Positions 3,195-51,425 of a stretch of 64,000 bases of DNA are shown here, piece after piece; position 1 is the stretch's first letter, and every line of letters begins with the position of its first letter. A program made the position numbers and the translations under genes. The stretch is taken from positions 22,285-86,284 of the forward strand of contig PAPB01000035.1 of the NCBI GenBank assembly GCA_002708715.1. Direction: 5' to 3'. Under the pieces are notes generated by a model, which was not told the DNA's origin, did no database searches, and worked only from the letters and a program-made list of their open reading frames with translations. This DNA is from Fidelibacterota bacterium (lineage in GTDB: Bacteria > Fidelibacterota > Marinisomatia > Marinisomatales > UBA1611).

Positions 3195-3195
3195 A

Positions 3196-4515: not shown

Positions 4516-4575
4516 TTATAAGTTAAAATTATTCTTCATATAAAACTATGTTAAGACCAAATAAGGAGCCTACTC

Positions 4576-7071: not shown

Positions 7072-7111
7072 TTGATAGGAGATTATCCTTGTTAAATATA
7101 TAGACATTAGG

Positions 7112-8299
7112 TTACTCAACAATCTGATATTTATTTTTGGTTTCATCATAAGAGAAAGCATTAAAATGCCACCATTCTGAATTTAAAATACTAAAGCCCG
7201 CTTTTTGCATTACTTTACGAAGGATTCTTCGGTTCTCAACCTGCTCTTTTGAAAGCTTACCTAGATTTAATAAAGAATCTTCATAAATTGGAAAGGCAAG
7301 TGCTCCAAAATAGTCATATTTGGTTCCCATATCTAGCTCCATTCCATTTTTATAAGCAAGAGTTAGATCTATTGCTGCTCCATAATTATGTATTGAACCC
7401 TTTATAGGGTCTGCAACAAATTTAGTTCGTTCAGTTTCAGGTATGGTGTCAAGAGCGTTCCACAGTTTTTTTTGGATACTTCTTGGACGTAGACCATCGT
7501 ATACTAGTAAACGTAAATCTGGATTTAGTTCTTGTAAACTTTTACTAGCACTAACAAGCATTGCTGCAGGGGTTTTTCGTAAATAACAAGAATCCAATTC
7601 GCCGTAAATATCTTTTCCTAAAAAGTTATCTTGAGTTGAATATTTTAAATCTACAATTATACTTGGATCCAGTTCTTGAATATTCACAATTTCATCATTA
7701 TCGTTTTGGTTTGATACTATTGGATTTCCAAATAAAATTTGGCAAAAAAATACAGCTCCAATAATGCCAGCAAGATCAGCTAGAAGTCCAGCTATAAGGG
7801 CATGCCTTGATTTTCTTATGCCCACTGAACCAAAATAAACAGCAAGGACATAAAAGGTTGTTTCTGTTGAACCATACATAGTGGCTCCAATTTTTGATAT
7901 TAATGAATCTTGTCCATATCGATCTATTAGGTCAGTTAATAATCCAAGAGAGCCACTCCCTGAAAGTGGCCGCATCAAGGCAAGCGGAAGGTTCTCTGGA
8001 GGAAATCCCACGATATTTAAAAAAGGTGTTAAAAATAATAATAACATTTCCAAAGCTCCTGAAGCTCTGAACATACCAATTGCGACTAATATTGCTACAA
8101 GGTAGGGAATGATCCGAACTGCAATTGTGAAACCATCTTTTGCACCTTCTACGAATGATTCATATACTTTAACTTTTTTAAAGAAAAGACCGTAGAATGG
8201 GATTAAAACCAGTAGAAAAGGGATGATGTATCTTGATATTTGATTCGTGAGAATAACAAAAGAATCAATCATGATTTTTGCCATTTTTTGGATATTCAA
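7112..8299 (-). CDS. Fusion of a SpmB-like nucleoside-recognition/Gate membrane domain and a VanX/DdpX-type D-Ala-D-Ala dipeptidase (M15)
   Basis: The N-terminal ~190 aa are hydrophobic and SpmB-like (VYESFVEGAKDGF..IIPYLVAILVAIGMFRASGA). The C-terminal ~190 aa have the dipeptidase blocks DLKYSTQDNF, YDGLRPRSIQ, GSIHNYGAAIDLTL, ELDMGT and EWWHF. An alternative start at 8272 overlaps the spmA stop (ATGATTGA). Confidence 0.8.
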   Translation of the reverse strand: MNIQKMAKIMIDSFVILTNQISRYIIPFLLVLIPFYGLFFKKVKVYESFVEGAKDGFTIAVRIIPYLVAILVAIGMFRASGALEMLLLFLTPFLNIVGFPPENLPLALMRPLSGSGSLGLLTDLIDRYGQDSLISKIGATMYGSTETTFYVLAVYFGSVGIRKSRHALIAGLLADLAGIIGAVFFCQILFGNPIVSNQNDNDEIVNIQELDPSIIVDLKYSTQDNFLGKDIYGELDSCYLRKTPAAMLVSASKSLQELNPDLRLLVYDGLRPRSIQKKLWNALDTIPETERTKFVADPIKGSIHNYGAAIDLTLAYKNGMELDMGTKYDYFGALAFPIYEDSLLNLGKLSKEQVENRRILRKVMQKAGFSILNSEWWHFNAFSYDETKNKYQIVE

Positions 8300-8867
8300 A
8301 TCGTTTCATTTTTTCTAGAAATTTTACAGCTATGATAGCTGTTATTGTTGATAATCCTGTAGCTAAAATTGTAGTAATAAAGATTTGATTTGCCGCTGCG
8401 CCCATTAGAGCAACTACAGTGGCAGGTAAAATGATTTGAACACTAGATGTATTTATGGCTAAAAATGTACACATTGCATTTGTAGCTGTTTCTTTATCAT
8501 CATTTAATTCCTGTAACTCTTCCATTGCTTTAAGTCCTAATGGAGTAGCTGCATTACCAAGGCCAAGTATATTTGCAGCCATGTTGAGAATAATTGACCC
8601 GATAGCTGGATGATCAGATGGAATGTCTGGAAATAGCCATAGGGTAATGGGACGAAGACCTCGAGCTATGATACGAATTAGCCCAGCTTCCTCTGCAATC
8701 TTCATTATTCCAAGCCAAAGGGCCATGATGCCAATAAGGCCTAGAGCAATAGTAACTGCTGTTTTGGACATATCTATTGCTGCCTGTGTTACAGCATCAA
8801 TATTTCCAGTTATCGTTCCTACAATAACAGCAACAAACATCATTCCAAACCAAATATAGTTTAGCAT
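8265..8867 (-). CDS. spmA: SpmA-like nucleoside-recognition (Gate) domain membrane protein
   Basis: A 200 aa hydrophobic protein (MLNYIWFGMMF...GLIGIMALWLGIMKIAEEAGL) with the typical SpmA N-terminus. It sits immediately upstream of the SpmB-like gene. Confidence 0.7.
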   Translation of the reverse strand: MLNYIWFGMMFVAVIVGTITGNIDAVTQAAIDMSKTAVTIALGLIGIMALWLGIMKIAEEAGLIRIIARGLRPITLWLFPDIPSDHPAIGSIILNMAANILGLGNAATPLGLKAMEELQELNDDKETATNAMCTFLAINTSSVQIILPATVVALMGAAANQIFITTILATGLSTITAIIAVKFLEKMKRFEYPKNGKNHD

Positions 8868-9803
8868 TTAAGTCTCTTTTTGTACAGCTGTTTCAAGTAT
8901 CTCAATGTATGGTTTATTGGTTGCATTAAGCTCAACTGATAAAGATAGAGGTATTGTACATTGGTATTTACCATGTCCGCAAGGGAAATTAGATATAATT
9001 GGAATGTCTAAATCCCCACAAATATCCATCACAATTTCATCAGTATTCTTTCCAAAAGGTATGTCCTGATCTTTAAAATCAGATAATTCTCCTATTACTA
9101 GCCCTTTAATATTTTTAAACATTCCTGATTCATACATATGCATCATGTTTCTTTCAAAAGAATATAAATATTCGTCTACATCTTCCAAAAAAAGAATTAT
9201 ATCTTTTGTTATTAAGGCATCATTAGTTCCTAAACGGTTTATAAGTAAAGTCATATTGCCACCCCATATTTCCCCAATTCCAGTTCCTGATTTTAATATT
9301 TTCACAGGTAGTGAATTTGAAGAAAAAATTTTCTTTTTTCCCTTAAATTGGAGGATCTGTAGCATTTGATGATAGTTATATTTTATAAATTGTTCGTTAA
9401 AGCTAGATAACATGGGACCATGAAAAGTAATGAGGCCTGTTTTTTGAGTGATTGATGTTAAATACGCTGTTATATCACTATATCCTAAAAATATTTTAGG
9501 ATTTTTTTTGATAATATCATAATCTAATAACGGTAATACTTTATTTGCGCCATACCCTCCACGTGCACAAATGATAACATCTATTGTTGGATCCTCAAAC
9601 ATATTATGAATATCATCAGCGCGATCTTGAGGTGTACCAGCAAAAGGTCCAAACCTTAAGAAATTACTTGTACCAAATTTTAAATTATATCCAAGGTCAG
9701 TAAAATATTTTGAAGTTTCCTCTAAGACTTTTTTATTAGGCCAATAAGATGGGCTTATAACGCCTATTGTTGAATTTGCTTTAAATTCTTTTGGTTTAAT
9801 CAT
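8868..9803 (-). CDS. ldcA: LD-carboxypeptidase (peptidase S66, LdcA/MccF family)
   Basis: It shows GVISPS, ARGGYG, the nucleophile elbow GYSDITA and FPCGHG (His), at an S66-typical size of 311 aa. Confidence 0.85.
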   Translation of the reverse strand: MIKPKEFKANSTIGVISPSYWPNKKVLEETSKYFTDLGYNLKFGTSNFLRFGPFAGTPQDRADDIHNMFEDPTIDVIICARGGYGANKVLPLLDYDIIKKNPKIFLGYSDITAYLTSITQKTGLITFHGPMLSSFNEQFIKYNYHQMLQILQFKGKKKIFSSNSLPVKILKSGTGIGEIWGGNMTLLINRLGTNDALITKDIILFLEDVDEYLYSFERNMMHMYESGMFKNIKGLVIGELSDFKDQDIPFGKNTDEIVMDICGDLDIPIISNFPCGHGKYQCTIPLSLSVELNATNKPYIEILETAVQKET

Positions 9804-11196
9804 CTATTATATATTGAATTATTTTATCTTGAAGTGATCGGTAAGGATTGGAATCTCCTATATATCCATTAGTTAAAATTGAAAATGCTATCGGGCCATA
9901 TCTAGGCGAAAAAATATATCCAGATATATTTGTGACTCCTGATAGCCCTCCTGTTTTAACCCTTATCATATCTCCTGCTATTTTTAGTCTATCTTCCATA
10001 GTCCCTTTTTTCATGCCTCCAGTAGGTAAGCATGAAATAAAATCATTTTTATGCTGACTATTAAATATCCATTCTAAAAATGTACATATTTCAGATGCAC
10101 TTGTTAGGTTATATCTAGATAGGCCAGATCCATCTGCAATTTTTATAAGGGTAGTATCGATGCCAACCGAATCATTTAGAAATATTTTTATATTGTGTAA
10201 GCCATTCTTCCAATCACCTTGCTTGTGATTAGTTAAGCCAATTTTTTTCACAAATAGTTCTGCAGTAAGATTATCACTTTCATTCATCAAGTTTTGTGCA
10301 GAATGTAATAATGATCTTGATGTATGGAGTGCTATTGGAATTGATTTTTTCGTTATTGATGTTATTGCAATTTGATTTACAACCACACTATATTTATTTA
10401 AAAGTTCTTTGAAAATTGTACCTGTAAATAGTGCTGGGTTTTTAATATTTCGTTTTAGTGTATCAGAAGCTGCGCCGTTTTTAATGGAACCGCTTATAGT
10501 AAAATGGTTTTTTTGTTTTATGAAGTCACGTTCTATAAATATTTTTTCGATGTTTGGGTTTTGTTTAATTGTTAAAGAATTGTTAGATATTGAAATATAA
10601 TCTGTTTTTGGATATGTTTTGATATTTGCAGGTTCATCTATCTCTCCTGGATTTATAATAAAATCAATACAGTTATCATTTAATGATAATGCACTTATTG
10701 GAGCGGCATACCACCATGGACCCTCATCCCACATCCACCCATTACCATAATAGACTGAGTCCATAAGAGTTGCGTCTAGGAATAATGTATCGACAAAATT
10801 TATAGATTGTGCTGAGCGGATTGCCAGGGAATCAAGTTGTGCTACAGTAAGATCAGGATCTCCGCCACCTTTTAAAATGAGGTTTTTTCCATCTTGCAAG
10901 ATGCTTGTTGTGAAAATATGATCCTCTCCTAGGTAGTGTAGTGACGCGCCTAGCGTATAGAGTTTATTATTACTTGCTGGAGTAAATAGTTTTTCACTAT
11001 TTAGCTCGTATAATGTTTTACCATTTTTTAGAGAAACTATTTTGATACCTAGTGATACATCAACATTTGAATTATTTATTATTTTATTAATTGGCTTTTT
11101 TAGTGATGTCATTCCATAATTTGTGTATAGTACCTTATTAGGAATGCAAGATTGAAAAATCATAAAAAATAATAAAAAATTATAAAAGGGTTTCAT
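9796..11196 (-). CDS. dacB: D-alanyl-D-alanine carboxypeptidase/endopeptidase, PBP4 family (S13)
   Basis: It has a signal peptide, SxxK (PASNNK), DGSGLSRYN and KTGGLSGV motifs, and is 466 aa long. Confidence 0.85.
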   Translation of the reverse strand: MKPFYNFLLFFMIFQSCIPNKVLYTNYGMTSLKKPINKIINNSNVDVSLGIKIVSLKNGKTLYELNSEKLFTPASNNKLYTLGASLHYLGEDHIFTTSILQDGKNLILKGGGDPDLTVAQLDSLAIRSAQSINFVDTLFLDATLMDSVYYGNGWMWDEGPWWYAAPISALSLNDNCIDFIINPGEIDEPANIKTYPKTDYISISNNSLTIKQNPNIEKIFIERDFIKQKNHFTISGSIKNGAASDTLKRNIKNPALFTGTIFKELLNKYSVVVNQIAITSITKKSIPIALHTSRSLLHSAQNLMNESDNLTAELFVKKIGLTNHKQGDWKNGLHNIKIFLNDSVGIDTTLIKIADGSGLSRYNLTSASEICTFLEWIFNSQHKNDFISCLPTGGMKKGTMEDRLKIAGDMIRVKTGGLSGVTNISGYIFSPRYGPIAFSILTNGYIGDSNPYRSLQDKIIQYIIDD

Positions 11197-11200
11197 TTGA

Positions 11201-11854
11201 TTAATCTATTATTTTATTGAAAAAGGCATTTAGTAATGCATCGCCTAGCGGTTGTGCTTTTTTAAAGTCATTTTGATTGATACCGATTCTTTCTGCAAAT
11301 ATATTACTCGCTTCAATATGAGTTTGAAAACTCCAAATCGGAAGATGCTTATGGGATATTGCTTCAATCTCAACCATTGAACTCGATCCAGAGATAGTAA
11401 AATCGGTTGGGCATTCTACTACACCTTCTTGGTGCGAATAAATTAAATAATCTTCAAATGTGCTCTTTAGTAAATTGTTATTATTGAGTTTGACTTTTCT
11501 GATTCCTATTTTTTTCTTGGCATTCCACAATAACTTTATTTTTCCCCCAAAGATATGTGCTAGAAATTGATGGCCAAAACATATTCCAAGAATAGGAACT
11601 TTCTTTTCAATAGCTTTTGTTATAACTATTGTAACATTTTTCATCCAATCAAAATTGTCATGTACTGATGCAGCGCTTCCCATTAAAATTACACCAGACA
11701 CATTTTTTATTTGATTTTCCATAGATTTTGAGTTGTGAATTGCAGGAAGATGGTAGCTTGTCTGAATAGGGCTTTTTGAGGCTAATTTATTGTAAGACTC
11801 TAATTCTGGAATTTCTAAAGATGGATCAATAATCATTAAATTTTTTGTATACAT
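11201..11854 (-). CDS. Class-I glutamine amidotransferase-like protein (GATase1 / C26-type fold)
   Basis: It has the nucleophile elbow GICFGHQ and a His-x-Glu (QTHIE) near the C-terminus. No synthase partner domain is present. Any role in gamma-glutamyl bond hydrolysis is only a guess from context. Confidence 0.65.
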   Translation of the reverse strand: MYTKNLMIIDPSLEIPELESYNKLASKSPIQTSYHLPAIHNSKSMENQIKNVSGVILMGSAASVHDNFDWMKNVTIVITKAIEKKVPILGICFGHQFLAHIFGGKIKLLWNAKKKIGIRKVKLNNNNLLKSTFEDYLIYSHQEGVVECPTDFTISGSSSMVEIEAISHKHLPIWSFQTHIEASNIFAERIGINQNDFKKAQPLGDALLNAFFNKIID

Positions 11855-11996
11855 TTATTTTTCTAAACTATTTATAATTGACTTAATTAAACATCCCATC
11901 ATTCTATTGAAAAATATTATTTATTTACGATTAATGATATCTAATAATAATCCATAATTACTTATAAATTAGTGTCTTATATTTATTTAAAAATTA

Positions 11997-12827
11997 GTGT
12001 ATATAAAAATATTTTTCTTATTTCTGACTCTTGTTATTGGTTGTTCAAAAACAGATCCTTTTGAATGGATTGAAACTTTGCCTAATCCGTGGGATTTAAC
12101 TGAGAACCAGTTAAATATTTATTTGCCTCAGTTTCATGATCGATTTCCTGATTATAAAAATAGATTAATTGCTTTGAATTTATGGCGTGTCGGGACTCCA
12201 TACGGAATTTTTTGCCTTGGTGAAGAGCGAGGTGTCGACCCTGATCCAATCATTAGGATTGATACTTCTGATTGTACTGTACACGTATTGACTACTATTG
12301 CCTATGCGGAAAGCCAATCTTTTAAGGATGCGAAAGATGCGATGATTCAATTGCATTATAAACCAAATCGTTATGGACAAATAGATCCTAGCTTTCAATC
12401 AAGATGGCATTACACTTCAGATAGATTATTAAATAATCCAAAAACTCCAGACATCACTTCAAAAGTTGTATCATCAGATATCCTTGAAACTATTGAAATT
12501 GAAATAAATAGGAAGCAGAATGGAGAGCAATTTTTAGATTTAGATTGGACTTCAAAAGAATCAATAAGTTTTATCCCAATTATAAAAATAGATGAAGATA
12601 TTTTAAAAAAACTTCCTAAAATTTGTGGCGTAGCTTTTGTTAAAAAAAGTTATTTTAGAAATGGGATTGTTATAGCTCATGAAGGTTATCTTATAAATAA
12701 AAAGAATTTAATACACGCATCTTCAAATGAAAAAATGACAGTAAATATAGATTTTTTATCATATTTATTTGGAAATGGTGGCCCTGGATTTGATGGAGTT
12801 ATGTTTTATGATTTTAAAGAAGGATAG
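11997..12827 (+). CDS. Lipoprotein, DUF1460 / N-acetylmuramoyl-L-alanine amidase-like (tentative)
   Basis: It has a GTG start and a lipobox (LVIGC). The DTSDCTVHV Cys-containing block and a C-terminal HASS... block are reminiscent of DUF1460. The call is made from memory only. Confidence 0.45.
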   Translation: MYIKIFFLFLTLVIGCSKTDPFEWIETLPNPWDLTENQLNIYLPQFHDRFPDYKNRLIALNLWRVGTPYGIFCLGEERGVDPDPIIRIDTSDCTVHVLTTIAYAESQSFKDAKDAMIQLHYKPNRYGQIDPSFQSRWHYTSDRLLNNPKTPDITSKVVSSDILETIEIEINRKQNGEQFLDLDWTSKESISFIPIIKIDEDILKKLPKICGVAFVKKSYFRNGIVIAHEGYLINKKNLIHASSNEKMTVNIDFLSYLFGNGGPGFDGVMFYDFKEG

Positions 12828-12839
12828 TAGATAATTAGT

Positions 12840-15167
12840 TTGAAATTATCAAGTATAGAAAATAGCGTTATTGAAAAAAATGTATTCGATAAGCAGAATA
12901 CAAAGATTCCTTATATCACGGTAGATAGTTTTCCTGATTTAGGTCTAATTACTGCCTTAAGATTTCTGGAATGGACTTTTGATAATCCAGAAGGAGTTAT
13001 CAGTCTGCCTACTGGTAAAACTCCTGAATATTTTATTAAATGGACAAATTATTTTATAAAAAATTGGGACACTGACAGTGTAAAGTCTATCAGAGGAAAA
13101 TATGGGCTGATATCTAAAACTCGACCTGATTTATCAAAATTACAATTTATTCAAATTGATGAGTTCTATCCTTTAAACCCTAACCAACATAATAGTTTTT
13201 ACAATTATGTAATTAAATATTATTTAGAAGGTTTTGGGATAGAAAAAAATAGATCCTATTTAATAAGTTCTAATGAAATTCCTTTAGCAAACGGTATGCA
13301 TTGGGAAGAAGTATTCTCTAATGGTATGGTTGATTTGAGTCTGAGACATAGAGAGGCAGCTACTGAAATAGAAAAGTATCAACAAGAGTCTCTGTTCCTT
13401 ATTGATCAGTGGTGTAATGTATATGAAGAGAAAATACGTGAGTTAGGTGGAATTGGATTTTTTCTTGGTGGTATTGGTCCTGATGGGCATATCGCTTTTA
13501 ACGTAAGAGGATCTGATCATAATTCTACTACAAGATTAATGGAAACAAATTTTGAAACTCAGGCTACTGCCGCTATTGATCTTGGAGGTATTGAAATTAG
13601 CAGGAATAGATTAGTCATTACCATTGGGCTTGGGACCATTACATATAATAAAGAAGCAACTGCTATCATAATTGCAGCTGGAGAAGCAAAAGCATCGATT
13701 ATTCAAAAATCACTTGAGTCAGATCAGGATATAATGTATCCTGCTTCTGTATTACAAAAACTAGAGCACTCTAGATTCTATATAACCTCTGGTGCTTCAA
13801 AATATTTGACAGATACTGATACTAAATTTTGGATGGAATCACCTTGGAATATTCAAAAAAAGCAAAGAGCACTTCTTAAGCTATCTAAAGAAAAAAATAT
13901 ATTTGGTAAAAAATTAACTGTTGAGGATTTTAAAAAAGAAAAAAAATTTAAAGGTATTAAAAATCTGAATGAAAATACTATTCCAGAGATAATTAAAAGT
14001 ATCGATGCAAAAGTCCAACGTGGTATAAAAAGTGAAAAAAATCAAATATATTACCATACTGGGCCACACCATGATGATATTATGTTAGGTATGATGCCAC
14101 ATATTATTCATTTAGTTAGAGAACCTAGTAATAGGCATATATTTGCAAATATGACATCTGGTTTTACTTCTGTGACTAATGATTTTTTAATTAAAGCACT
14201 TAAAAAGACACTATTTTTTCTTGAGAATGAAAGAATAGGAATGGTTACCTATCCAGACTTTTTTTCTAAAGGCTATAAATTTAAGTGGGACAAAGATGTA
14301 TACCATTATCTTGATAGAATAGCGGATAACGATATTAATGGACAGCAAAGAGGATTATCTCATAGAATCGTTCGATCAATTGTTGAAATATTCTCCATTA
14401 AAAATAAAAAACAATTATCTCATCAGTTAAAAACCATTATTAATGAATTAGGTAGGTGCTATGAAGGAGAAAAAAACTCTTTTGATATTCAAAAATTAAA
14501 AGGTATGATTCGTGAATTTGAAGAAGAATTGGTATGGGCAAACTATGGAGTCCGTGTCCGAGATGTTCACCATTTACGTCTTGGGTTTTATAAGGGTGAT
14601 ATGTTTACAGAGCAACCACAGAAAAAAAGAGATGTGAATCCAATATTAAATCAATTACAGGAATTTGAGCCTACAGTAATCTCTTTAGCACTTGATCCTG
14701 AGGGTAGTGGGCCTGATACTCATTATAAAGTACTCCAGTCTATAGCGGAGGCAATTAGACTTTGGGGAAAAACTTCTGATCTTTCAAAGTTGCGTATCTG
14801 GGGATATAGAAATGTTTGGTATCGTTTTGATTTAGAAGAAGCAGATCTCATTGTGCCTGTAACACTTAACTCTATGGCTATTATGCATTCAACGTTTATG
14901 AATTGTTACTTAAGTCAGAAAGATGCATCTTTTCCAAGCTATGAATATGATGGCCCTTTTTCAAAATTGTCCCAAAAAATATGGGTGGAACAACATCGTG
15001 ATTTACAATTGATCTTAGGCAGAGATTATTGGTATCGTAATCCTAATCCACATTTACGTGCTGTACATGGAGCGGTTTATTTAAAAGAGATGAATGTCGA
15101 AAAATTTTTAAGCTTATCAAGGCGACTTGAAGAATCTATAGAGAATTCAGCTATTTTTAACGATTAG
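12840..15167 (+). CDS. Glucosamine-6-phosphate deaminase (NagB) fused to a PIG-L/LmbE-type deacetylase domain
   Basis: The N-terminal half has the NagB blocks LPTGKTP, QIDEF and GGIGPDGHIAFN. The C-terminal half begins with HTGPHHDDIMLG (PIG-L/LmbE metal motif). TTG start. Confidence 0.8.
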   Translation: MKLSSIENSVIEKNVFDKQNTKIPYITVDSFPDLGLITALRFLEWTFDNPEGVISLPTGKTPEYFIKWTNYFIKNWDTDSVKSIRGKYGLISKTRPDLSKLQFIQIDEFYPLNPNQHNSFYNYVIKYYLEGFGIEKNRSYLISSNEIPLANGMHWEEVFSNGMVDLSLRHREAATEIEKYQQESLFLIDQWCNVYEEKIRELGGIGFFLGGIGPDGHIAFNVRGSDHNSTTRLMETNFETQATAAIDLGGIEISRNRLVITIGLGTITYNKEATAIIIAAGEAKASIIQKSLESDQDIMYPASVLQKLEHSRFYITSGASKYLTDTDTKFWMESPWNIQKKQRALLKLSKEKNIFGKKLTVEDFKKEKKFKGIKNLNENTIPEIIKSIDAKVQRGIKSEKNQIYYHTGPHHDDIMLGMMPHIIHLVREPSNRHIFANMTSGFTSVTNDFLIKALKKTLFFLENERIGMVTYPDFFSKGYKFKWDKDVYHYLDRIADNDINGQQRGLSHRIVRSIVEIFSIKNKKQLSHQLKTIINELGRCYEGEKNSFDIQKLKGMIREFEEELVWANYGVRVRDVHHLRLGFYKGDMFTEQPQKKRDVNPILNQLQEFEPTVISLALDPEGSGPDTHYKVLQSIAEAIRLWGKTSDLSKLRIWGYRNVWYRFDLEEADLIVPVTLNSMAIMHSTFMNCYLSQKDASFPSYEYDGPFSKLSQKIWVEQHRDLQLILGRDYWYRNPNPHLRAVHGAVYLKEMNVEKFLSLSRRLEESIENSAIFND

Positions 15168-16593: not shown

Positions 16594-16608
16594 AATACTA
16601 TTAGTATT
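16594..16608. promoter_or_regulatory. Perfect 7-1-7 inverted repeat AATACTA-T-TAGTATT in the kdsD/bcp divergent intergenic region (candidate operator)
   Basis: Read directly from the sequence. It is followed by the direct repeat GTATTTAG-TG-GTATTTAG (16603-16620). It lies 40-54 nt upstream of the peroxiredoxin ATG. Confidence 0.35.
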
Positions 16609-16647
16609 TAGTGGTATTTAGATTTTGACCTGATATTCAATTAAAAA

Positions 16648-17136
16648 ATGAAAGCAATCCTATTTTTTTTTATGTTTAAAATTTCTTTATTTAGTTCATC
16701 ATTAAAACTAGGTGATAGTGTACCTAATTTTAATTTAAAGGATCAAAATGGTAGGCAGCATCAATTGATCGATTATAAAGGAGAAAAACTTGTTATCTAT
16801 TTTTTCCCTAAGGCGTTTACCCCAGGATGAACAAAGCAAGCGTGCGGGCTACGCGATAATTATGAAAGTTTTAGAAAAAATAATATTTCTATTTTAGGTG
16901 TTAGTTATGATACAGAGGATAAATTAAAGTTATTTAAGGAAAAATATAATTTGGATTTCAATTTATTATCAGATTCAGAAAAAATAATGGGGAAATTGTA
17001 TGATGTGAATAGTTATCATTTTTTTCCACAGCGTAAAACTTTTCTCATTAATGAAAATGGAGTGTTAGTACATATAATTAATTCAGTAAATATAGATAAT
17101 CATGCTGATGATATCTTAAAAATTTTTAAAAAATGA
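16648..17136 (+). CDS. bcp: Bcp/PrxQ-type peroxiredoxin with selenocysteine (TGA 16828-16830) at the peroxidatic position; N-terminal signal-like extension
   Basis: The two ORF-track fragments (16648..16830 and 16951..17136) are in the same frame. Reading through the TGA gives YFFPKAFTPG-U-TKQACGLRDNY...GVSYD...LLSD...RKTFLI. This is collinear with the Bcp motif FTPGCTxxAC, with the resolving Cys 5 residues later. Confidence 0.8.
16840..16854 (+). promoter_or_regulatory. Candidate bacterial SECIS hairpin for the Sec-peroxiredoxin
   Basis: GCGU-GCGGGCU-ACGC is a 4-bp GC stem with a G-rich loop, starting 10 nt after the UGA, in a locally GC-rich patch. The stem is short, so the call is tentative. 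Confidence 0.4.
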
Positions 17137-17149
17137 TAAGGAGTTTAGG

Positions 17150-17374
17150 ATGAAACTATCTATTGAATATTGTTCAGTTTGAAATTATTTACCTAAAGCT
17201 TCTAGTTTAGAAGCTGAATTAAAACAAAGTTTTTCTAATATTGATATTTCTCTTATCTCATCAGGGGGTGGAGTATTTGAGATTACTTTGGACAAAAAAT
17301 TGATTTTTTCAAAAAAATCTTTAGGACGTTTTCCCAATGATGGTGAAGTCGTGAGTTTAATCAATGAACGCTAG
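17150..17374 (+). CDS. SelW/SelT/Rdx-family small redox protein with a CxxU motif (Sec at TGA 17180-17182)
   Basis: The ORF track does not call it. AAGGAG (17138-17143) precedes the ATG at 17150. The translation is MKLSIEYCSV-U-NYLPKASSLEAELKQ...GGGVFEI...FSKK..GRFP, 74 codons ending at TAG 17372-17374. This matches the Rdx-fold pattern IEYCxxC/U. Confidence 0.75.
17197..17215 (+). promoter_or_regulatory. Candidate bacterial SECIS hairpin for the SelW-like gene
   Basis: A perfect 8-bp stem AGCUUCUA/UAGAAGCU with loop GUU, starting 15 nt after the UGA. Confidence 0.55.
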
Positions 17375-17387
17375 GATAAGATAGGTT

Positions 17388-18137
17388 TTGAAAATTATAT
17401 ATGAAGAAAAACAGTATTTAATTAGTAGTGAAAATGCATTTGATTTATCTATTAAAAACACCTTCTCGGGCGATGCTCCAACTTTTTATAACTCTTCTCA
17501 ACCAAGTTGTAAACCTTTAGCATCAGAAGATTTTATTGGTGATATACAACAAGGTGGGAGTTGTAATGTCCCTATTGTTTCAATTAATATTCATTGTACT
17601 GGAACTCATACAGAGTGTGAGGGGCATGTGAATGATTCCAATATTACAATAGCTGATGTGTGCCCTATAGATTTCATTCCAGCTTCTTTGATAACAATTT
17701 CACCAGAGCAAGCGAACAGAACGGAGGAATCATATCATGTTGCATTAGCAGAGGATATGGTTATAACTAAAAATGCTATTAAGGAGAAAATGTTGACAGC
17801 GCATAGTGGACTTATTATCCGCACAACACCGAATAGTCATTCTAAAAAATCAAGAAACTATGATTATGAAGCAGCACCTTTCCTTACTAATGATGCTATC
17901 GATTATATTATAGCCGCGGGAGTGGAGCATTTACTTGTCGATTTGCCTTCGATTGATAAATCTGAAGATGATGGACAATTAGGCAATCATAAAAGGTTTT
18001 TTAAGAGTGGTAAAACAGTCTCGGAATTACTTTTTATAGAAAATGATATAAATGATGGGTTTGGTTTTTTACATATTCAGGTTCCAAACTGGGCACTAGA
18101 TTCAGCACCTAGCAGACCAATTTTTTATCCGACGTAA
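17388..18137 (+). CDS. Cyclase-family protein (arylformamidase / kynurenine formamidase-like fold)
   Basis: HCTGTHTECEGH resembles the HxGTHxDxPxH metal motif. A later block, GVEHLLVDLPSIDK...GNH, resembles the second conserved block. TTG start. Confidence 0.5.
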   Translation: MKIIYEEKQYLISSENAFDLSIKNTFSGDAPTFYNSSQPSCKPLASEDFIGDIQQGGSCNVPIVSINIHCTGTHTECEGHVNDSNITIADVCPIDFIPASLITISPEQANRTEESYHVALAEDMVITKNAIKEKMLTAHSGLIIRTTPNSHSKKSRNYDYEAAPFLTNDAIDYIIAAGVEHLLVDLPSIDKSEDDGQLGNHKRFFKSGKTVSELLFIENDINDGFGFLHIQVPNWALDSAPSRPIFYPT

Positions 18138-18205: not shown

Positions 18206-19489
18206 ATGAGCAAAAATTTTAAAAGTGTAATTACTTGTGACCTAGATGGAAAGGTAGAGACTTTCAGCGATGGTGCAGTGAATCTTTTTGGCTATAATGC
18301 TGAAGAAGTTATTGGTAAAATGCGAGTGAGTGATTTTAGTGATGGCCAGGTTGTGTTAGGTCATGTAATAGGTTGGTTGGATGAATCAGTTAAAAAAGGG
18401 AAATGGGAAGGAGAGACAGCATTTTTACGTAAGGATGGGAGTGAGTTTTCAGCTAGAATTAAAATTACTCCAACAAAAGATAAAAATGGTGAACATATTG
18501 GATATTGTGGTGTTACCACACCATTAAAAGATAAAACGCCCGATGAAGTAAGACCAAAAATAGATTTTATGACAAAAATATTTACATGGGTTGTAATTAT
18601 GCGGTTGCCGTTTTTATCTGCTACTATTATGCCAATTTTGGTTGGAGCTGCAGTGGCAAAATTTATGGGATATCCCGTAGACTGGTCTTGGCTTGGCCTT
18701 ACTTTGCTAGGTGGATCTCTGTTGCATATTGGGACTAATACATCTAATGATTATTTTGACTATTTGAGTGGGACAGATGATTTAAACTATAATTATAGTA
18801 ATAAAGGTTTAAATGGTGGAAGTAGGGGGATACAAATGGGGCTTATTACTCCTACAGGTGTGCGAAATTTAGCGATCACTGTTTTTACGTTAAGTGTGTT
18901 GGTAGGTATTCCACTTATACAAAAAGCAGGTATGTCTGTTTTATGGTTAGGATTAATAGGATTTTTATCTGGCTTATTTTATACAGCACCTCCATTTCGA
19001 TTTTCATCAAGGAAAGGAATGGGTGAATTGCTCATTGGACTTAATTTTGGTCCACTAATGGTGGCAGGTAGTACGTTGGTACAAACAGGTCAACTTCTAC
19101 CAGAAGCATTTTTAGCGGGTATCCCTCTGGGATTCCTAATTGCTGCTGTTGTATATGTTAATGAATTTCCAGATCATGATAGTGATAAAGCAACAGGAAA
19201 GAATACCCTTATAGTGGTATTTGGTCCTGAAAAAGCAAGAGTTGGCTATGTTGCATTAGTCTCAGGTGCTTTTCTTAGTATAGTCTTATTGGTCTTGAAT
19301 GGAACTTTTCCTTCTTTAATATTGATTGCGTTATTAGCTTCATATTTTGGGATAACATCTATTCAAACACTCTATAAATATTACAATAGTAGACTGCTTG
19401 AGCCAGCAAATTGGGGTACTATTATTATGCACAGCGTTACAGGTGTATTGCTTTTTATAGGACTTTGGCTAGGAAACTCCGCAATATAA
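18206..19489 (+). CDS. PAS domain fused to a UbiA-superfamily (MenA-like) polyprenyltransferase
   Basis: The N-terminal ~110 aa have a PAS pattern (DGKVETFSDGAVNLFGYNAEEVIGK...FLRKDGSEF...I..T). They are followed by ~8 TM helices with NDYFDYLSGTD and NEFPDHDSDKATGKNTL, the two Asp-rich prenyltransferase motifs. Confidence 0.75.
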   Translation: MSKNFKSVITCDLDGKVETFSDGAVNLFGYNAEEVIGKMRVSDFSDGQVVLGHVIGWLDESVKKGKWEGETAFLRKDGSEFSARIKITPTKDKNGEHIGYCGVTTPLKDKTPDEVRPKIDFMTKIFTWVVIMRLPFLSATIMPILVGAAVAKFMGYPVDWSWLGLTLLGGSLLHIGTNTSNDYFDYLSGTDDLNYNYSNKGLNGGSRGIQMGLITPTGVRNLAITVFTLSVLVGIPLIQKAGMSVLWLGLIGFLSGLFYTAPPFRFSSRKGMGELLIGLNFGPLMVAGSTLVQTGQLLPEAFLAGIPLGFLIAAVVYVNEFPDHDSDKATGKNTLIVVFGPEKARVGYVALVSGAFLSIVLLVLNGTFPSLILIALLASYFGITSIQTLYKYYNSRLLEPANWGTIIMHSVTGVLLFIGLWLGNSAI

Positions 19490-19757: not shown

Positions 19758-20378
19758 GTGAATAAAAAGCTGTCACCAAAGTTGAAAAAATTCTTGGACT
19801 TTATACATCGATTTATATTGATTCATGATCAGTCTCCATCTTATGAAGAAATCATGCAAAGCTTAGGATTTGGATCATTGGGGACAGTTAACTGGTATGT
19901 AAAGACCCTAGAAGAACAGGGTTATTTATATCGTGTAAAAGGTCCTAACGGTAAGCGGGCACTCGCCTTAGCTCAAGAAGAGCTTTCCGCAACTACAACA
20001 GCCTGTTTACCGTTATTAGGGCTTATCGCTGCGGGTGAGCCTATTGAAGCGTTAGAGAATCCTGAGATGGTGGACGTTCCATCATCTTTATTGCATCCAG
20101 ATAATTATGTGCTACAGGTTAAAGGTAATTCTATGATTGATGAAAATATACATGATGGAGATTATATCGTTGCTAGAAAAGCAAAAACTGCACGTTCAGG
20201 ACAGATTGTTGTTGCTCTTGTTAATGGTGAAGCTACATTAAAATGTTATGTCCCTAAAAAAAATAAAGTTGAATTACATCCTCGGAATTCAACTTTTCCA
20301 GTTATAAAAATCGATTCGCATGATGATTTTCATATAAATGGTGTTTTACTTTATTCCTTTCGGAACTATTTGAATTAG
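19758..20378 (+). CDS. lexA: LexA repressor (S24 peptidase)
   Basis: It has a GTG start and an N-terminal wHTH (LDFIHRFI...SPSYEEIMQSLGF.S.GTV..YVKTLEEQGYL). It also has an Ala-Gly cleavage site (LIAAGEPIEA), the catalytic Ser (GNSM) and Lys (ATLK). Confidence 0.9.
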   Translation: MNKKLSPKLKKFLDFIHRFILIHDQSPSYEEIMQSLGFGSLGTVNWYVKTLEEQGYLYRVKGPNGKRALALAQEELSATTTACLPLLGLIAAGEPIEALENPEMVDVPSSLLHPDNYVLQVKGNSMIDENIHDGDYIVARKAKTARSGQIVVALVNGEATLKCYVPKKNKVELHPRNSTFPVIKIDSHDDFHINGVLLYSFRNYLN

Positions 20379-20389
20379 GAATAATACCC

Positions 20390-21562
20390 ATGATTAATAA
20401 AGACGTTTTTCACATACGTCTTAATAATATGGTGTTACAAGCTGAACAAATTATGGACCCTAGTCTTAAAACATGTTCTGTGGCTATTATTTCTTCAGAA
20501 GATCCTAATGGGAGTGTTATTGCATTATCTTCTGAAGCTAAAGAAGAAGGGATTTTTCATGGAATGAAGGTTTCTTTAGTTAGAAAAATGAGTCATAATA
20601 CGATACTGTTACCATATAATAAATCTCTTTATAATAGTATTAATAATCACATATATAATATTTTATCTAGATATACACCTATTATTGAACCAAATGGTAT
20701 TGGAAATTATTTTTTAGATATGTGTGGTATGGATGCTCTTAAAGGCAATATGGAGAACACAGGACTTTCTATTATTAAACATATTCAAAGTCAAACAAAT
20801 CTATCAGGAATAGTTGGGATTAGTATTAATAAACTGGTTAGTAAAGTTATTACTGATGTTGTGTCTGATATGATTCATAAGGTTGATAATGGAGATGAAA
20901 AAAAATTTCTTTCACCTTTAAAACCACAGGTGTTACCAATTGTACAAGAGAGAATGGTTAATCGAATGCTGAAATTCCTTTTTATTAAACAGATTAAAAA
21001 TATTCAAGAGATGTCAAAACAAGTTAAAGAATTCCAGATATTATTTGGATCTTATGCTACATTACTTGTTAAGCAATCAAATGGCTCTGATCAATCACCT
21101 GTGATGCCACCATATTATTTAGATCATATTGTAGAGCAAACAATTTTACCAAAGGATACAAATGATAAAAATATATTATTAGCGATAGTAAAAGATCTCG
21201 CTGAAAAAGTTGCATTTAAACTTAGAAAACGAAAGCAAAATTCAGGTAGAGTACAATTAGAAATTCACTATAGTGATGGATACAAATGTTTTTCTTTAGG
21301 GAAGATTGATGATATTGATGATTATTCTGTAATTATTATTTTTAAAAAATTATTTTTTTGTGCAAACAAACGTCGTAATCGTATACGTACTATATTAGTA
21401 AACCTTTGCAGATTCTCTCCTTATGTAGAGCAGATCAACCTCTTTGATACATATCAGAATCGTAGTTTGGATCTTTCTCGTTCTTTAGAAAAAATACGAT
21501 TGAAGTATGGTGTACGTAGTGTACAAACTGCTAATATATTGCAGGCTCTAGGTTGTACCTGA
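20390..21562 (+). CDS. imuB: ImuB-like inactive Y-family DNA polymerase paralogue
   Basis: It is collinear with the DinB/UmuC fold, but the N-terminal catalytic DxD block reads HIRLNNM (acidic residues replaced). It sits between lexA and dnaE2. Confidence 0.7.
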   Translation: MINKDVFHIRLNNMVLQAEQIMDPSLKTCSVAIISSEDPNGSVIALSSEAKEEGIFHGMKVSLVRKMSHNTILLPYNKSLYNSINNHIYNILSRYTPIIEPNGIGNYFLDMCGMDALKGNMENTGLSIIKHIQSQTNLSGIVGISINKLVSKVITDVVSDMIHKVDNGDEKKFLSPLKPQVLPIVQERMVNRMLKFLFIKQIKNIQEMSKQVKEFQILFGSYATLLVKQSNGSDQSPVMPPYYLDHIVEQTILPKDTNDKNILLAIVKDLAEKVAFKLRKRKQNSGRVQLEIHYSDGYKCFSLGKIDDIDDYSVIIIFKKLFFCANKRRNRIRTILVNLCRFSPYVEQINLFDTYQNRSLDLSRSLEKIRLKYGVRSVQTANILQALGCT

Positions 21563-24500
21563 TGTTTATTCATTTAAACATACATTCTGTTTATTCCTCA
21601 ATGTGTGGACTTTTATCATTATCAGATCTAATGGATAAAGCAAAATCCTGTTCTATGGATACATTAGGATTAACTGATGTGAATGGACTATGGGGTTTTA
21701 TTCGTTTTGTACAACATTGTCGTCAATCTGATATTAAACCGATTGCTGGGGTTAATTTGATAACAGATCATGATGAGGTTATACTATTAGTAGAGAATCA
21801 GAATGGGTATGAAAATCTTTGTAGAATTATATCCACGATACATGATAATTCAGACCAAAAGATATCGGATGTATTAGAAGGATATTCATCTGGGTTATTT
21901 GTTATAGCGTTTGATAAAAAAACACTACAGTTATTACATCGTTTTATTCCAGATACACATCTTTTTGTAGAGCTACGACCAGGATTCTCAGAGTTGCAAA
22001 TACAACAATTAGCAAGGGATTTGAAATTAGAAATCGTTGTAACTGGTGATGTATATTTTGCATCAGAGAGAGATTATAGATCATACATAGTTTTGCGTGC
22101 TATAGATAATAGTGTAACATTGGATCAGTTAGATTTATCAAAACAGAAAACAAAACAACATTGGTTTCGTAATGAGAGAGAGATGGTGCATTTATTCCCA
22201 AATAGTTTAGATGCAATTAATAATACTCGATACTTAGCTGATCGTTGTAAGACTGATTGGTCATTTATTAATACTATTTTTCCAGGATTATCACTTAAAG
22301 AAACTTACCATGCGAATAGAGAATTAAAAGATAAAGTTTACATAGGTGCTAAGAAGCGTTATAATGATATAAATAGCAATGTGCGGAATCGTATTAATTA
22401 TGAATTACAACTTATTACTCAAAAAGGTTTTGCACCTTATTTTCTTATTGTTCAAGATATTATTACTAAGACGCAGGCTACTATTGGACGAGGGTCTGCA
22501 GCCGCATCAATTGTGAGTTATTGTCTTTTTATTACTCAGGTGGATCCTTTACGTTATAATTTACAATTTGAACGTTTTATCCATTCAGAGAGAGAAAATA
22601 TGCCAGATATTGATGTGGATTTTCCCTGGGATGAACGTGACAGTATTTTAGAGTATGTATTTAAAAAATATGGTAATGAACGTACGGCGATGGTTTCTAA
22701 TCAGGTTATTTTAAAAACTCGTTCAGCTATTCGAGAGGTAGCGAAAGTATATGGATTGTCAAATGAAGAAATTAAAAGTATTACAAATCGTATTGGTTGG
22801 TATCATTCATCTAAAGATTTAGAACATTGGATACGGACAGATTCCCGGTTTGCTAATCTTGATTTAAATGATACTATAATTCGTATTTTAAAAGAAAGTG
22901 AGAAAATCATAGGAGCCTTTCGTTATTCTTCAGTTCATCCTGGTGGAGTGCTAATTGTACCAGATGAGATTAGAAAATATGTACCTGTCCTTACAGCACC
23001 GAAAGGTGTTCAAATTGTAGAATGGGAGAAGGATCAGGTAGAAGATTCTGGACTTTTAAAAATTGATTTATTAGGTAATAGGAGCCTAGCTGTAGTTCGT
23101 GATACTATTTCTTCTATAAATATTCATAGAGAAGAGTTTGATAATAAATATTTAGACTATCATCAAATCCAACCTATCGGTGATAAAAAAACAGAGGACT
23201 TATTGAAAATAGGTAAGACGATGGGGGTCTTTTATATAGAGAGCCCTGCCACTAGACAATTACTTGCTAAGTCGGGAATAGTAGACTTTGAACATGTAGT
23301 CATCTATTCATCAATTATTCGCCCTGCCGCTAATAAATATACGAATCTAATGTTGTCTAGAATACATGGTGAAAAATGGAATTTAATTCATCCAGATTTA
23401 GAGTTTTTAAAAGAAAGTTATGGGATTATGGTGTATGAAGAACATGTCTCTATGGCGGTAATGACTATGGCGGGGTTGGGATATGCAGAAGCAGAACAAT
23501 TAAGAAAAACGATGAGTCGAAATTCTATGCAACATTTTATTATATCATGGAAACAAAAATTTATTGGAGGTGCACAAAAAAGAGGATATCCTTTAAAAAT
23601 AATCAATACTGTTTGGGAAATGATTGAATCTTTTGTTGGTTATTCTTTCTGTAAGCCTCATTCTGCATCTTATGCTATGCTTTCTTTTACTTGTGCATAT
23701 CTCAAGGCTCATTTTCCAGCTGAGTTTTTATCATCTGTTATATCTAATCAAGGTGGTTTTTATTCATCATATGCTTATATGAATGAAGCACGTAGATTGA
23801 AAATCAAGATACTTACTCCAGATATAAACGATAGTAATTATCATTGGCATGGACAATCTGATAAAATTCGAATGGGTTTTATGAGTATTAGAAATTTAAA
23901 ATATAAAACAATTAGTCTAATTTTATCTAAAAGAAAAAATGGTTATTTTGATTCTCTAGATGATTTTTTATTTCGTGTTGATTTAGACTTTTCTGATGCT
24001 ATGGCGTTAACTAATGCTGGTTGTTTTAGATCTATAACTTTAAATATGAGTCACCAAGAGATTGCATATAATGTAGCAGGATTTTATTTGCAGAATGGAT
24101 CACGAAAAACATTTGGACCAAGTCTATTAAAAAGACACCTGACACTAGATGAAAAATATCAATTAGAATTAGATACGTTTGGCTTCCCTATTACTATTCA
24201 TCCTACTGCAAGATATCGGCCAATGCTTAGTAAGAGGATTTGTTATGCAAAGGATATCCCAAAATATCAAGGTCAGTCTATTTATTTAATAGGTATTTAT
24301 ATAACAAGAAAAGAATCTACAACACGTATGTCTGAACCTATGGAATTTTTAACATTAGAAGATGAGACCGATATCTATGAGTGTGTTCTCTTCCCTACTG
24401 TTTTTAAAGATTTTGGTGATCTGGTACACTGGGAAAGATTATTTATTATAAGAGGAAAAGTAGAAGAATCTTTTGGTGTTTGTAGTATTAATGTTGAAAA

Positions 24501-24573
24501 AATAGGCAGTTTACAGCAATGGATAAACCGTATAAAGCAGCATAAATCAGTATCTACATATCATTTTGATTAG
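21562..24573 (+). CDS. dnaE2: Error-prone DNA polymerase III alpha-subunit paralogue DnaE2 (ImuC)
   Basis: It has a PHP domain (FIHLNIHSVYS), the Pol III alpha core blocks (GRGSAAAS, PDIDVDF, HPGG, KID.LG) and an OB fold at the C-terminus. The preferred start is the ATG at 21562, overlapping the imuB stop (TGATG). The ORF track starts at 21553. Confidence 0.85.
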   Translation: MFIHLNIHSVYSSMCGLLSLSDLMDKAKSCSMDTLGLTDVNGLWGFIRFVQHCRQSDIKPIAGVNLITDHDEVILLVENQNGYENLCRIISTIHDNSDQKISDVLEGYSSGLFVIAFDKKTLQLLHRFIPDTHLFVELRPGFSELQIQQLARDLKLEIVVTGDVYFASERDYRSYIVLRAIDNSVTLDQLDLSKQKTKQHWFRNEREMVHLFPNSLDAINNTRYLADRCKTDWSFINTIFPGLSLKETYHANRELKDKVYIGAKKRYNDINSNVRNRINYELQLITQKGFAPYFLIVQDIITKTQATIGRGSAAASIVSYCLFITQVDPLRYNLQFERFIHSERENMPDIDVDFPWDERDSILEYVFKKYGNERTAMVSNQVILKTRSAIREVAKVYGLSNEEIKSITNRIGWYHSSKDLEHWIRTDSRFANLDLNDTIIRILKESEKIIGAFRYSSVHPGGVLIVPDEIRKYVPVLTAPKGVQIVEWEKDQVEDSGLLKIDLLGNRSLAVVRDTISSINIHREEFDNKYLDYHQIQPIGDKKTEDLLKIGKTMGVFYIESPATRQLLAKSGIVDFEHVVIYSSIIRPAANKYTNLMLSRIHGEKWNLIHPDLEFLKESYGIMVYEEHVSMAVMTMAGLGYAEAEQLRKTMSRNSMQHFIISWKQKFIGGAQKRGYPLKIINTVWEMIESFVGYSFCKPHSASYAMLSFTCAYLKAHFPAEFLSSVISNQGGFYSSYAYMNEARRLKIKILTPDINDSNYHWHGQSDKIRMGFMSIRNLKYKTISLILSKRKNGYFDSLDDFLFRVDLDFSDAMALTNAGCFRSITLNMSHQEIAYNVAGFYLQNGSRKTFGPSLLKRHLTLDEKYQLELDTFGFPITIHPTARYRPMLSKRICYAKDIPKYQGQSIYLIGIYITRKESTTRMSEPMEFLTLEDETDIYECVLFPTVFKDFGDLVHWERLFIIRGKVEESFGVCSINVEKIGSLQQWINRIKQHKSVSTYHFD

Positions 24574-37120: not shown

Positions 37121-37133
37121 AAGTAAATATTGC

Positions 37134-47415: not shown

Positions 47416-47442
47416 ACCAATAAAGTATCAATAGATTTAGAC

Positions 47443-47475
47443 AAAAAAAAAGGGGGAGTAGAACTCCCCCTTTTT
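47443..47475 (-). terminator. Rho-independent terminator after the 1266-aa gene
   Basis: On the minus strand: GGGGGAGT-TCT-ACTCCCCC followed by nine T. Confidence 0.85.
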
Positions 47476-47494
47476 AGATTATATAGATCAGTTG

Positions 47495-51295: not shown

Positions 51296-51325
51296 TTTTA
51301 CTTTATTTACGTTTAAATATTTTAG

Positions 51326-51343
51326 TAACTCTAGATAGAGACA
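51326..51343. promoter_or_regulatory. Imperfect copy (TAACTCTA-GA-TAGAGACA) of the palindrome found at 59850-59867; candidate shared operator
   Basis: It lies 31 nt upstream of the ATG of the 1266-aa gene. The surrounding ~35 nt (TTAGTAACTCTA..TAGAG..ATTAATT.TAGG) are shared with the 59.85 kb region. Confidence 0.45.
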
Positions 51344-51425
51344 CTATTAATTATAGGTAGTAAAACCAGTTTAACATACTAATTTAGTTATAATGGCCTT
51401 AATTCTACAAAAGAATTTTAGTAGG

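Follow-up and report, generated by a model that had tools for sequence, protein, structure and literature searches.

We analyzed a stretch of 64,000 nucleotides (positions 22,285 to 86,284 of contig PAPB01000035.1; called the window below), which comes from a bacterium of the Marinimicrobia (SAR406). The analysis supports the view that the gene at 16648..17136 on the forward (+) strand encodes a selenocysteine (Sec)-containing peroxiredoxin (Prx) of the Bcp/PrxQ type, which callers of open reading frames (ORFs) split in two. The coding sequence has 162 codons including Sec61, the peroxidatic residue, which is specified by the UGA codon at 16828..16830 (+). This assignment is based on direct reading, on comparisons with Pfam, PDB and NCBIfam, on a TGA that is kept in 15 of 15 orthologous loci and on a Cys that stands at the same place in homologues. 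In the explanation that we favor with high confidence from the sequence, the protein is a thiol peroxidase of the Bcp/PrxQ type that has Sec61, at UGA 16828-16830, in place of the peroxidatic Cys. The conserved TGA, the Cys homologues, the selection on the downstream part, a hairpin behind the UGA and a second, adjoining selenoprotein gene together support the Sec reading.

The peroxiredoxin frame and its active site

The Prx frame starts with the ATG at 16648 and ends with the stop TGA at 17134-17136; its single interruption is the TGA at 16828-16830, where the surrounding residues read YFFPKAFTPG*TKQACGLRD. When U was treated as C, the 162-amino-acid (aa) product matched the Pfam family AhpC-TSA with an E value of 5.9e-36 over profile positions 2-123 of 124; Redoxin was also matched. 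This domain is complete only when the TGA is read through, which argues against a pseudogene or two separate genes. The nearest solved structures are Bcp/PrxQ proteins, namely PDB 3drn (E 9.6e-28, query residues 19-161), followed by 5enu, 5epf, 2cx3 and the 3gkk/5iiz series. The top-ranked NCBIfam model was the Bcp equivalog NF006960, with 132.9 bits against a cut-off of 140 when U was scored as C and the N-terminal extension was left attached. Membership in the PrxU family (NF040737) was rejected, since the score of 37.7 bits is far from the cut-off of 270. A preliminary description of this DNA had placed the in-frame TGA at the position of the Bcp peroxidatic Cys and the downstream piece in the same frame; both statements are borne out by direct reading and by the full-length AhpC-TSA match.

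The active-site motif P54-K-A-F-T58-P-G-U61 (PxxxTxxU; 16807..16830, +) is unchanged in the 15 orthologues. The TxxU motif of Sec-containing Prx proteins has been described (PMC1088965), as has the longer form PxxxTxxU (PMC13188914). Arg129 (17032..17034, +) is the conserved catalytic Arg; its counterparts in the alignment are the Arg in ARITF of 3drn and in ERSTF of 5enu, and it corresponds to the critical conserved Arg of peroxiredoxins (PMC3322552). Cys66 (16843..16845, +), at position +5 relative to Sec61, is invariant in all 15 orthologues and is the candidate resolving Cys. This role is suggested by analogy: in E. coli BCP, with Cys45 and Cys50, the resolving Cys has the same Cp-x4-Cr spacing as Sec61 and Cys66.

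The mechanical ORF list presents the Prx gene as a 60-aa ORF (16648-16830) and a TTG-started 61-aa ORF (16951-17136). Between the TGA at 16828-16830 and the TTG at 16951 there is neither a start codon nor a ribosome-binding site, and a start at this TTG would drop the conserved residues 62-101. Gene callers were expected from the preliminary description to split the gene, and the databases contain the traces of this: the Tara, JGI and ENA catalogues enter the 60-aa N-terminal piece as a 'complete' gene, and in an NCBI metagenome-assembled genome (MAG) the orthologue P0113 is annotated only as the 99-aa fragment after the TGA.

TGA is the stop of 11 of the 38 long ORFs in the window, and, as read directly from the ORF coordinates, several of these terminal TGAs overlap the start of the next gene by 4 nt. 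The organism therefore uses the standard code, and TGA 16828-16830 is an exception and not a reassignment; the reassigned codes of tables 4 and 25 are ruled out by this stop-codon usage. The terminal TGA of the Prx gene is itself followed immediately by TAA (17137..17139, +). The resulting tandem TGA-TAA at 17134-17139 provides a back-up stop, which may matter where UGA is also decoded as Sec.

Conservation of the TGA and selection on both sides of it

A protein search in a collection of 5.8 billion proteins returned 357 relatives, and the best 120 of the 357 were classified by their peroxidatic residue. In these 120 the position is occupied by W in 97 and by Cys in 16; several others are fragments that begin after the TGA. 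The W is an artefact of translation with table 4, because the 99%-identical entry P0001 renders its terminal TGA as W as well (...KKW). Under table 11, no encoding locus 'translates to query'. The terminal TGAs in the table-4 entries also add a spurious W and read-through tails (e.g. P0057, P0064 and P0067). Table-4 translation of short metagenomic contigs hides selenoproteins as full-length entries with a false Trp.

For 15 distinct orthologous loci (45-97% aa identity), taken from assemblies of Tara, JGI, ENA and Logan, the codon itself was read directly. It is TGA in all 15. In homologues at a greater distance (about 45-57% identity) the sequence is TPGCTKQAC or TPPCKKQAC; examples of TPG-C-TKQAC are P0083, P0096, P0110 and P0116. 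The alignment with Cys-containing Bcp orthologues that the preliminary description had proposed shows Cys at the position of the TGA in 16 homologues. When representative genome contigs were scanned with the protein, the only homologues were distant ones of the Cys type (Aquimarina, 44%; Halomonas, 26%); the lineage had no close relative among the representative genomes within reach of this pattern scan.

We compared nonsynonymous and synonymous differences by Nei-Gojobori counts in the 95 codons after the TGA and in the 40 codons before it. After the TGA, pN is 0.12-0.30 and pS is 0.54-0.89. The dN/dS ratio of this part is 0.07-0.34 where saturation allows an estimate, and it is indistinguishable from that of the codons before the TGA. 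Purifying selection after the TGA indicates that the downstream part is translated and constrained, and this excludes a pseudogene, a sequencing error or two independent genes.

In an unrelated marine contig, MDTG01316927.1 (L007 3001-3468), we observed an AhpC-type 2-Cys peroxiredoxin (...FYPLDFTFV*PTELIAF...) with an in-frame stop at the position of the peroxidatic Cys. This protein is probably another Sec-peroxiredoxin from a different subfamily.

A putative SECIS hairpin in the peroxiredoxin gene

A putative bacterial Sec insertion sequence (SECIS), the hairpin GCGUGCGGGCUACGCG with a G-rich apical loop, is located at 16840..16855 (+). It can be written as GCGUG-CGGGC-UACGC (16840-16854), 9 nt past the UGA; the register common to the close orthologues, from C14-G28 down to G17-C25, lies 10 nt past it. 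Overall the hairpin spans +13/14 to +27/28, and the loop is CGGGC or GGNYU. A small apical loop containing G is a feature cited for bacterial SECIS elements (PMC1088965). The GC-rich hairpin that had been noted after the UGA in the preliminary description is therefore present, and the distance of 10 nt given there is essentially right; as a lone fold, however, it is weak. The GGUCU loop found in several orthologues is similar to GGUC, the loop of E. coli fdhF.

Several observations suggest that the hairpin is under selection. Its GC content is 81%, compared with 33% in the window, and it is composed of codons that this genome uses rarely (GCG, 10% of Ala; TGC, 18% of Cys; GGG, 11% of Gly; CTA, 16% of Leu; CGC, 4.8% of Arg), with a joint probability of 1.6e-5. 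In a synonymous resampling, the peptide of each orthologue was kept fixed and the codons were drawn from the usage of the window. The real sequence was more stable in 14 of 15 orthologues, with a mean z of -1.95, and seven of them were at or below 1.6% of the resamples. Furthermore, pair 15-27, which joins the third base of an Ala codon to the third base of an Arg codon, varies among G-C (4), A-U (4) and C-G (1). The unpaired cases belong to a clade with a Phe codon, in which the register is shifted by two and the loop is GUU. The rare codons, the resampling and the varying pair together argue that the hairpin has been selected.

Other results weigh against a SECIS function of this hairpin. 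The lone sequence folds with only -4.9 kcal/mol, which is no better than dinucleotide shuffles (z +0.96), and the stem has 4-5 bp. Only pair 15-27 varies freely, and 14 of 500 shuffles reach the observed value. The stem occurs in two alternative registers, in the Leu-codon and the Phe-codon clades respectively, and RNAalifold on the 15 orthologues gave a consensus of only 3 pairs because of these two registers; register B taken alone contains no two-sided changes. Much of the pairing potential stems from invariant amino acids (A-C-G-x-R-D), and the resampling control on Cys-type homologues gave mixed z values of -0.67 and -2.44, its two usable sequences being too few to be informative. Rfam, the Infernal route that the preliminary description had suggested, was uninformative as well: it gave no match at the gathering threshold in the whole window and, in E-value mode over 16600-17420, only chance matches below the threshold. 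Judged from the sequence, we consider with moderate confidence that the hairpin is a bacterial SECIS, and the formal statistics for it are modest.

The adjoining gene for a SelW-like selenoprotein

The preliminary description had overlooked a second selenoprotein gene, which adjoins the Prx gene at 17150..17374 (+) after a gap of 13 nt. It codes for a SelW/SelT/SelH (Rdx) protein of 74 codons, which begins MKLSIEYCSV*NYLPKA... and contains the motif C8-S-V-U11. The UGA for Sec in this CxxU motif is at 17180..17182 (+), and TGA is found there in 14 of 14 distinct orthologous sequences. When the codon is read through, the product matches Pfam Rdx over its full length (E 1.2e-21, profile 2-73 of 74, 77.1 bits vs 22.6). 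It also exceeds the cut-offs of the NCBIfam models NF041051, 'SelT/SelW/SelH family (seleno)protein' (104.9 bits, cut-off 88), and TIGR02174 (66.5 bits, cut-off 34.2).

The Rdx gene has its own putative SECIS hairpin, AGCUUCUA-GUU-UAGAAGCU, at 17197..17215 (+). It has 8 bp, a GUU loop and a folding energy of -9.0 kcal/mol (z -2.07). Covariation also supports it: 92% of the cells in the alignment are paired, pair 24-30 is C-G in 9 and U-A in 5 sequences and is never broken, and none of 500 shuffles reaches the score. This hairpin is better supported as a SECIS than the one in the Prx gene. The conserved TGA at CxxU, the score above the curated cut-off of a selenoprotein family and the covarying hairpin of the Rdx gene indicate that the organism appears to decode Sec. 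With the shared N-terminal CxxU, the full-length family match and a SECIS-like hairpin with a GUU loop, the protein has no notable difference from SelW-like/Rdx proteins (PF10262; NF041051, TIGR02174) and is an ordinary member of this bacterial family.

The start codon of the Prx gene lacks a Shine-Dalgarno sequence, in contrast to that of the Rdx gene, which has the Shine-Dalgarno-like AAGGAG (17138..17143, +) 6 nt upstream. A scan for sigma-70 promoters and terminators around the operon gave nothing better than shuffled sequences, and no terminator was found between the Prx and Rdx genes. A conserved motif, TTAGATTTTG, is located at 16618-16627, approximately 20-30 nt 5' of the Prx start, and has the same position in L009, L010, L012 and L025. 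It is similar to, but not an exact match of, TAnnTTTG, the -7 promoter element of the Bacteroidetes type.

Host, gene order and Sec machinery

The host is a Marinimicrobia (SAR406) bacterium: four proteins encoded in the window are identical to NCBI entries from a MAG of Candidatus Marinimicrobia bacterium (CMG55_08175, CMG55_08185 and others). The tails of the type IX secretion system (T9SS), the PorV-like proteins and the CarboxypepD_reg-TonB receptors in the window fit a bacterium of the Fibrobacteres-Chlorobi-Bacteroidetes (FCB) group. The gene order, with cytochrome c and KpsF on the minus strand and Prx, Rdx, a cyclase-like gene and PAS/UbiA following, is kept in orthologous loci down to 57% Prx identity. 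A more distant clade of Sec-Prx proteins (45-52% identity) is without the Rdx neighbor.

A result that speaks against the Sec reading is that no selA, selB, selD or tRNA-Sec is located within the 64-kb window. In this context it is relevant that Peng et al. (2016) reported three SAR406 single-cell genomes with SelD and with no other recognized selenium trait or selenoprotein (PMC5029168). This listing of an 'orphan SelD' is the only entry that our search of the literature on Marinimicrobia/SAR406 and selenoproteins produced. The presence of two selenoprotein genes on a long SAR406 contig suggests that the 'orphan' status of SelD in those genomes reflects incompleteness or missed selenoprotein genes.

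The N-terminal extension and the location of the enzyme

The first 18 residues of the Prx, MKAILFFFMFKISLFSSS (16648..16701, +), lie outside the Bcp fold. The alignment to a solved Bcp opens only at residue 19, where LKLGD corresponds to VKVGD at residue 2 of 3drn, and residues 1-18 are thus an add-on. This extension resembles signal peptides of other proteins in the window and is a probable signal peptide of the Sec (secretory) type. Judged from its sequence, we consider it probable that the extension is cleaved and that the enzyme is exported to the periplasm. The preliminary description had called export unusual for Bcp. The extension is indeed present and signal-like; the word 'unusual' was overstated, because a periplasmic member of the subfamily, PprX, has been characterized (PMC3322552).

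Another reading, which is possible but which we regard as doubtful, accepts the selenoprotein as such and places it in the cytoplasm or on the inner side of the membrane. In this case the hydrophobic N-terminus would serve as an anchor without being cleaved, or Met9 within the sequence would be the translation start, and the adjoining SelW-like CxxU protein would reduce the Prx directly. Several findings weigh for this reading and hence against export. The Rdx partner has no signal peptide, yet its gene is tightly linked to the Prx gene by the 13-nt gap and is syntenic across the clade; an exported Prx and this Rdx would occupy different compartments. The hydrophobic core of the extension is short and is broken by Lys11. 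In the Cys homologues P0110, P0114 and P0102 a transmembrane helix is followed by a basic cluster (KPRKK), which according to the positive-inside rule suggests that the domain faces the cytoplasm in these proteins. Many gene callers pick the internal Met, and a possible functional link between Prx and SelW has been raised by the authors of the Global Ocean Sampling (GOS) study (PMC2398784).

The same region also contains the evidence against a cytoplasmic enzyme. The long, ATG-started N-terminus is conserved in the orthologues (MKIILIFFMFKISLFSSS, MKNIIIFFMLKLSLFSSS, MRKISPLLLLNVFLFGAN and others), including those that have no internal Met. Its layout of n-region, h-region and Ser-rich c-region is like that of exported proteins in the window, for example a T9SS cargo protein, MKFILFLFIFNFLSGE..., and a TonB receptor, MIKILFMFLKLLFLILNMIFA|G..., whose hydrophobic core likewise includes a Lys. 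For a membrane-spanning helix, the hydrophobic stretch of the Prx does not have the necessary length. Finally, Cys-type homologues with clear export signals and classical cleavage sites exist (P0119, ...NQAQA|VQ; P0106, lipobox VVAS-C; P0120, ...FINAQ|N). Export as the result of a cleaved signal peptide therefore stays the reading that we prefer.

Proposed mechanism and remaining alternatives

Together with established knowledge of bacterial Sec insertion and of atypical 2-Cys BCP enzymes, the presence of PxxxTxxU, of Arg129 and of a Cys at +5 suggests the following mechanism. The hairpin 9-10 nt 3' of the UGA would recruit SelB with Sec-tRNA(Sec), so that the ribosome would insert Sec and not terminate. 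In the finished enzyme Sec61 would attack the hydroperoxide (ROOH), giving a selenenic acid. Cys66 could then resolve this intermediate by forming an intramolecular selenenylsulfide (Se-S). The enzyme would be regenerated by a reductant with a thioredoxin fold; for an exported enzyme this may be a periplasmic protein resembling TlpA, and for one that is not exported it is possibly the SelW-like neighbor.

An extension of this mechanism is speculative and, taken as a whole, improbable. According to it, the Prx(Sec)-SelW(Sec) pair would be a two-selenoprotein relay for peroxide reduction, in which the SelW-like CxxU protein reduces the selenenylsulfide of the Sec-PrxQ; SAR406 would be Sec-decoding and would account for a large share of the oceanic Prx/SelW signal. 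If the relay were true, it would provide the first defined function for bacterial SelW-like proteins, and SAR406, which so far is listed only with an 'orphan SelD', would become a Sec-decoding phylum.

It is very unlikely that the TGA is read without Sec, either by near-cognate suppression with Trp or Cys or because of a lineage-specific reassignment, to give a product without selenium. This idea would agree with the lack of Sec machinery in the 64-kb window and with the database entries that have W at the peroxidatic position. However, TGA is a normal stop for 11 of the 38 long ORFs, and the W originates from table 4, as the W at the terminal TGA of P0001 demonstrates. A peroxiredoxin would lose its activity with Trp as the peroxidatic residue. 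In addition, both in-frame TGAs are exactly at positions of redox Cys residues, each with a conserved hairpin behind it, and single-cell genomes of SAR406 are reported to carry SelD (PMC5029168).

The ideas of a pseudogene, of an error in sequencing or assembly, or of two short genes that are independent of each other, for which one could quote the 60-aa 'complete' gene in the catalogues and the statistical weakness of the lone-sequence hairpin, are effectively refuted: 15 distinct loci, which come from independent samples and assemblers, have the same TGA, the 45-97% identity range of these loci excludes an artefact of one shared reference, dN/dS after the TGA equals that before it, the TGA is not followed by a start codon or ribosome-binding site before TTG 16951, and the domain is complete only with read-through. 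A real stop with two genes or an erroneous TGA, which the preliminary description had named as outcomes that would speak against it, were thus not seen.

Relation to known systems

Sec-containing Prx proteins (COG1225/pfam00578, TxxU) are known from marine metagenomes of the Sargasso Sea and GOS (Zhang, Fomenko & Gladyshev 2005, PMC1088965; Zhang & Gladyshev 2008, PMC2398784). In the GOS data, ten Prx/SelW sequences with adjacent genes formed one small phylogenetic group, and the authors urged a study of their functional link (PMC2398784); the counts in GOS are 253 and 427 (PMC2398784). A 2026 review cites the adjacent Prx/SelW genes as an example of a selenoprotein operon (PMC13188914). The gene described here shares with the marine Sec-Prx proteins (PMC1088965, PMC2398784) the Bcp-type AhpC/TSA domain, the Sec in TxxU, the small G-containing apical loop downstream, the planktonic marine origin and the adjacency of Prx and SelW. 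We infer that it belongs to the same clade as the Prx/SelW group of GOS. In contrast to those reads, for which no taxonomy was given and an export signal was not discussed, it lies on a SAR406 MAG contig of 130 kb and has the signal-like extension of 18 residues. At the family level, the Sec-Prx and the Prx/SelW pair are therefore not novel, being known from the ocean metagenomes of 2005-2008. The additions made here are modest, namely SAR406 as a taxonomic home, a wider conserved synteny, the signal-like extension and the mishandling of the gene in catalogues.

The closest parallel for an exported enzyme is PprX of Caulobacter crescentus, a periplasmic BCP/PrxQ with a signal sequence of 20 residues and with TlpA and ScsB as its reductants (Cho et al. 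2012, PMC3322552). The two proteins have in common the BCP/PrxQ subfamily, a PxxxTxxC-type motif, the conserved Arg and an N-terminal extension of about 20 residues that is read as a signal. They differ in that PprX uses Cys and has its resolving Cys elsewhere, whereas the present protein has Sec with a Cys at +5. Among the Pfam matches of the 64-kb window there is no homologue of TlpA, ScsB or DsbD. E. coli BCP and the Bcp structures 3drn, 5enu and 3gkk have the same fold and the same catalytic Pro, Thr and Arg, but these proteins are cytoplasmic, Cys-based and without an N-terminal extension. PrxU of Eubacterium acidaminophilum is a selenocysteine peroxiredoxin (NF040737; Sohling et al. 2001, as cited in PMC13188914); it shares Sec as peroxidatic residue with the present protein but is AhpC-like and thus a member of another subfamily.

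The result is mainly a correction of annotation. In the MAG and in large protein catalogues the gene is listed as a 60-aa stub, as a headless C-terminal fragment or as a full-length protein with a false catalytic Trp, and surveys that rely on such entries undercount selenoproteins. In addition, the marine Prx/SelW pair, which for a long time had no taxonomy, can be placed in an abundant uncultured phylum of the ocean, the Marinimicrobia (SAR406), and Sec decoding would explain the 'orphan' SelD of the SAR406 single-cell genomes (PMC5029168). If the enzyme is exported, as is probable, the theme of a periplasmic PrxQ (PprX) would be extended to a selenoenzyme. The current view of Sec recoding and of peroxiredoxin chemistry is not changed by the placement in SAR406 or by export.

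Other features of the window

Downstream of the selenoprotein genes, the gene at 18206-19489 (+) codes for a protein of 427 aa in which an N-terminal PAS domain is fused to a UbiA/MenA-type prenyltransferase. Members of its cluster with 306 aa are without PAS, and one of them carries the name 1,4-dihydroxy-2-naphthoate octaprenyltransferase; it is unusual for a membrane prenyltransferase to have a sensor domain. It is followed at 19758-24573 (+) by overlapping genes for LexA, an ImuB-like Y-family polymerase and a DnaE2-like protein (error-prone Pol III alpha), a cassette that looks like an SOS mutagenesis module.

Two paralogous cassettes are located at 32898-41851 (+) and 46099-59827 (-). 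Each contains a SurA-like peptidyl-prolyl isomerase, a CarboxypepD_reg-TonB-dependent receptor, a large protein and a PorV-like outer-membrane protein. The large proteins, with 1256 and 1322 aa, have no Pfam match; they are 35% identical to each other (E 4e-120) and contain repeated DNDGD-type motifs.

The region 4-15167 encodes a beta-lactamase-fold/GH3 fusion, a GH18 protein with a T9SS tail, a NamZ exo-muramidase, an SSF transporter and an NlpC/P60 protein. The same region further contains an M15 dipeptidase fused to Gate domains, an LD-carboxypeptidase, an S13 carboxypeptidase, an AmiA-like amidase and a NagB-like protein of 775 aa. This cluster looks dedicated to the salvage of peptidoglycan and amino sugars.

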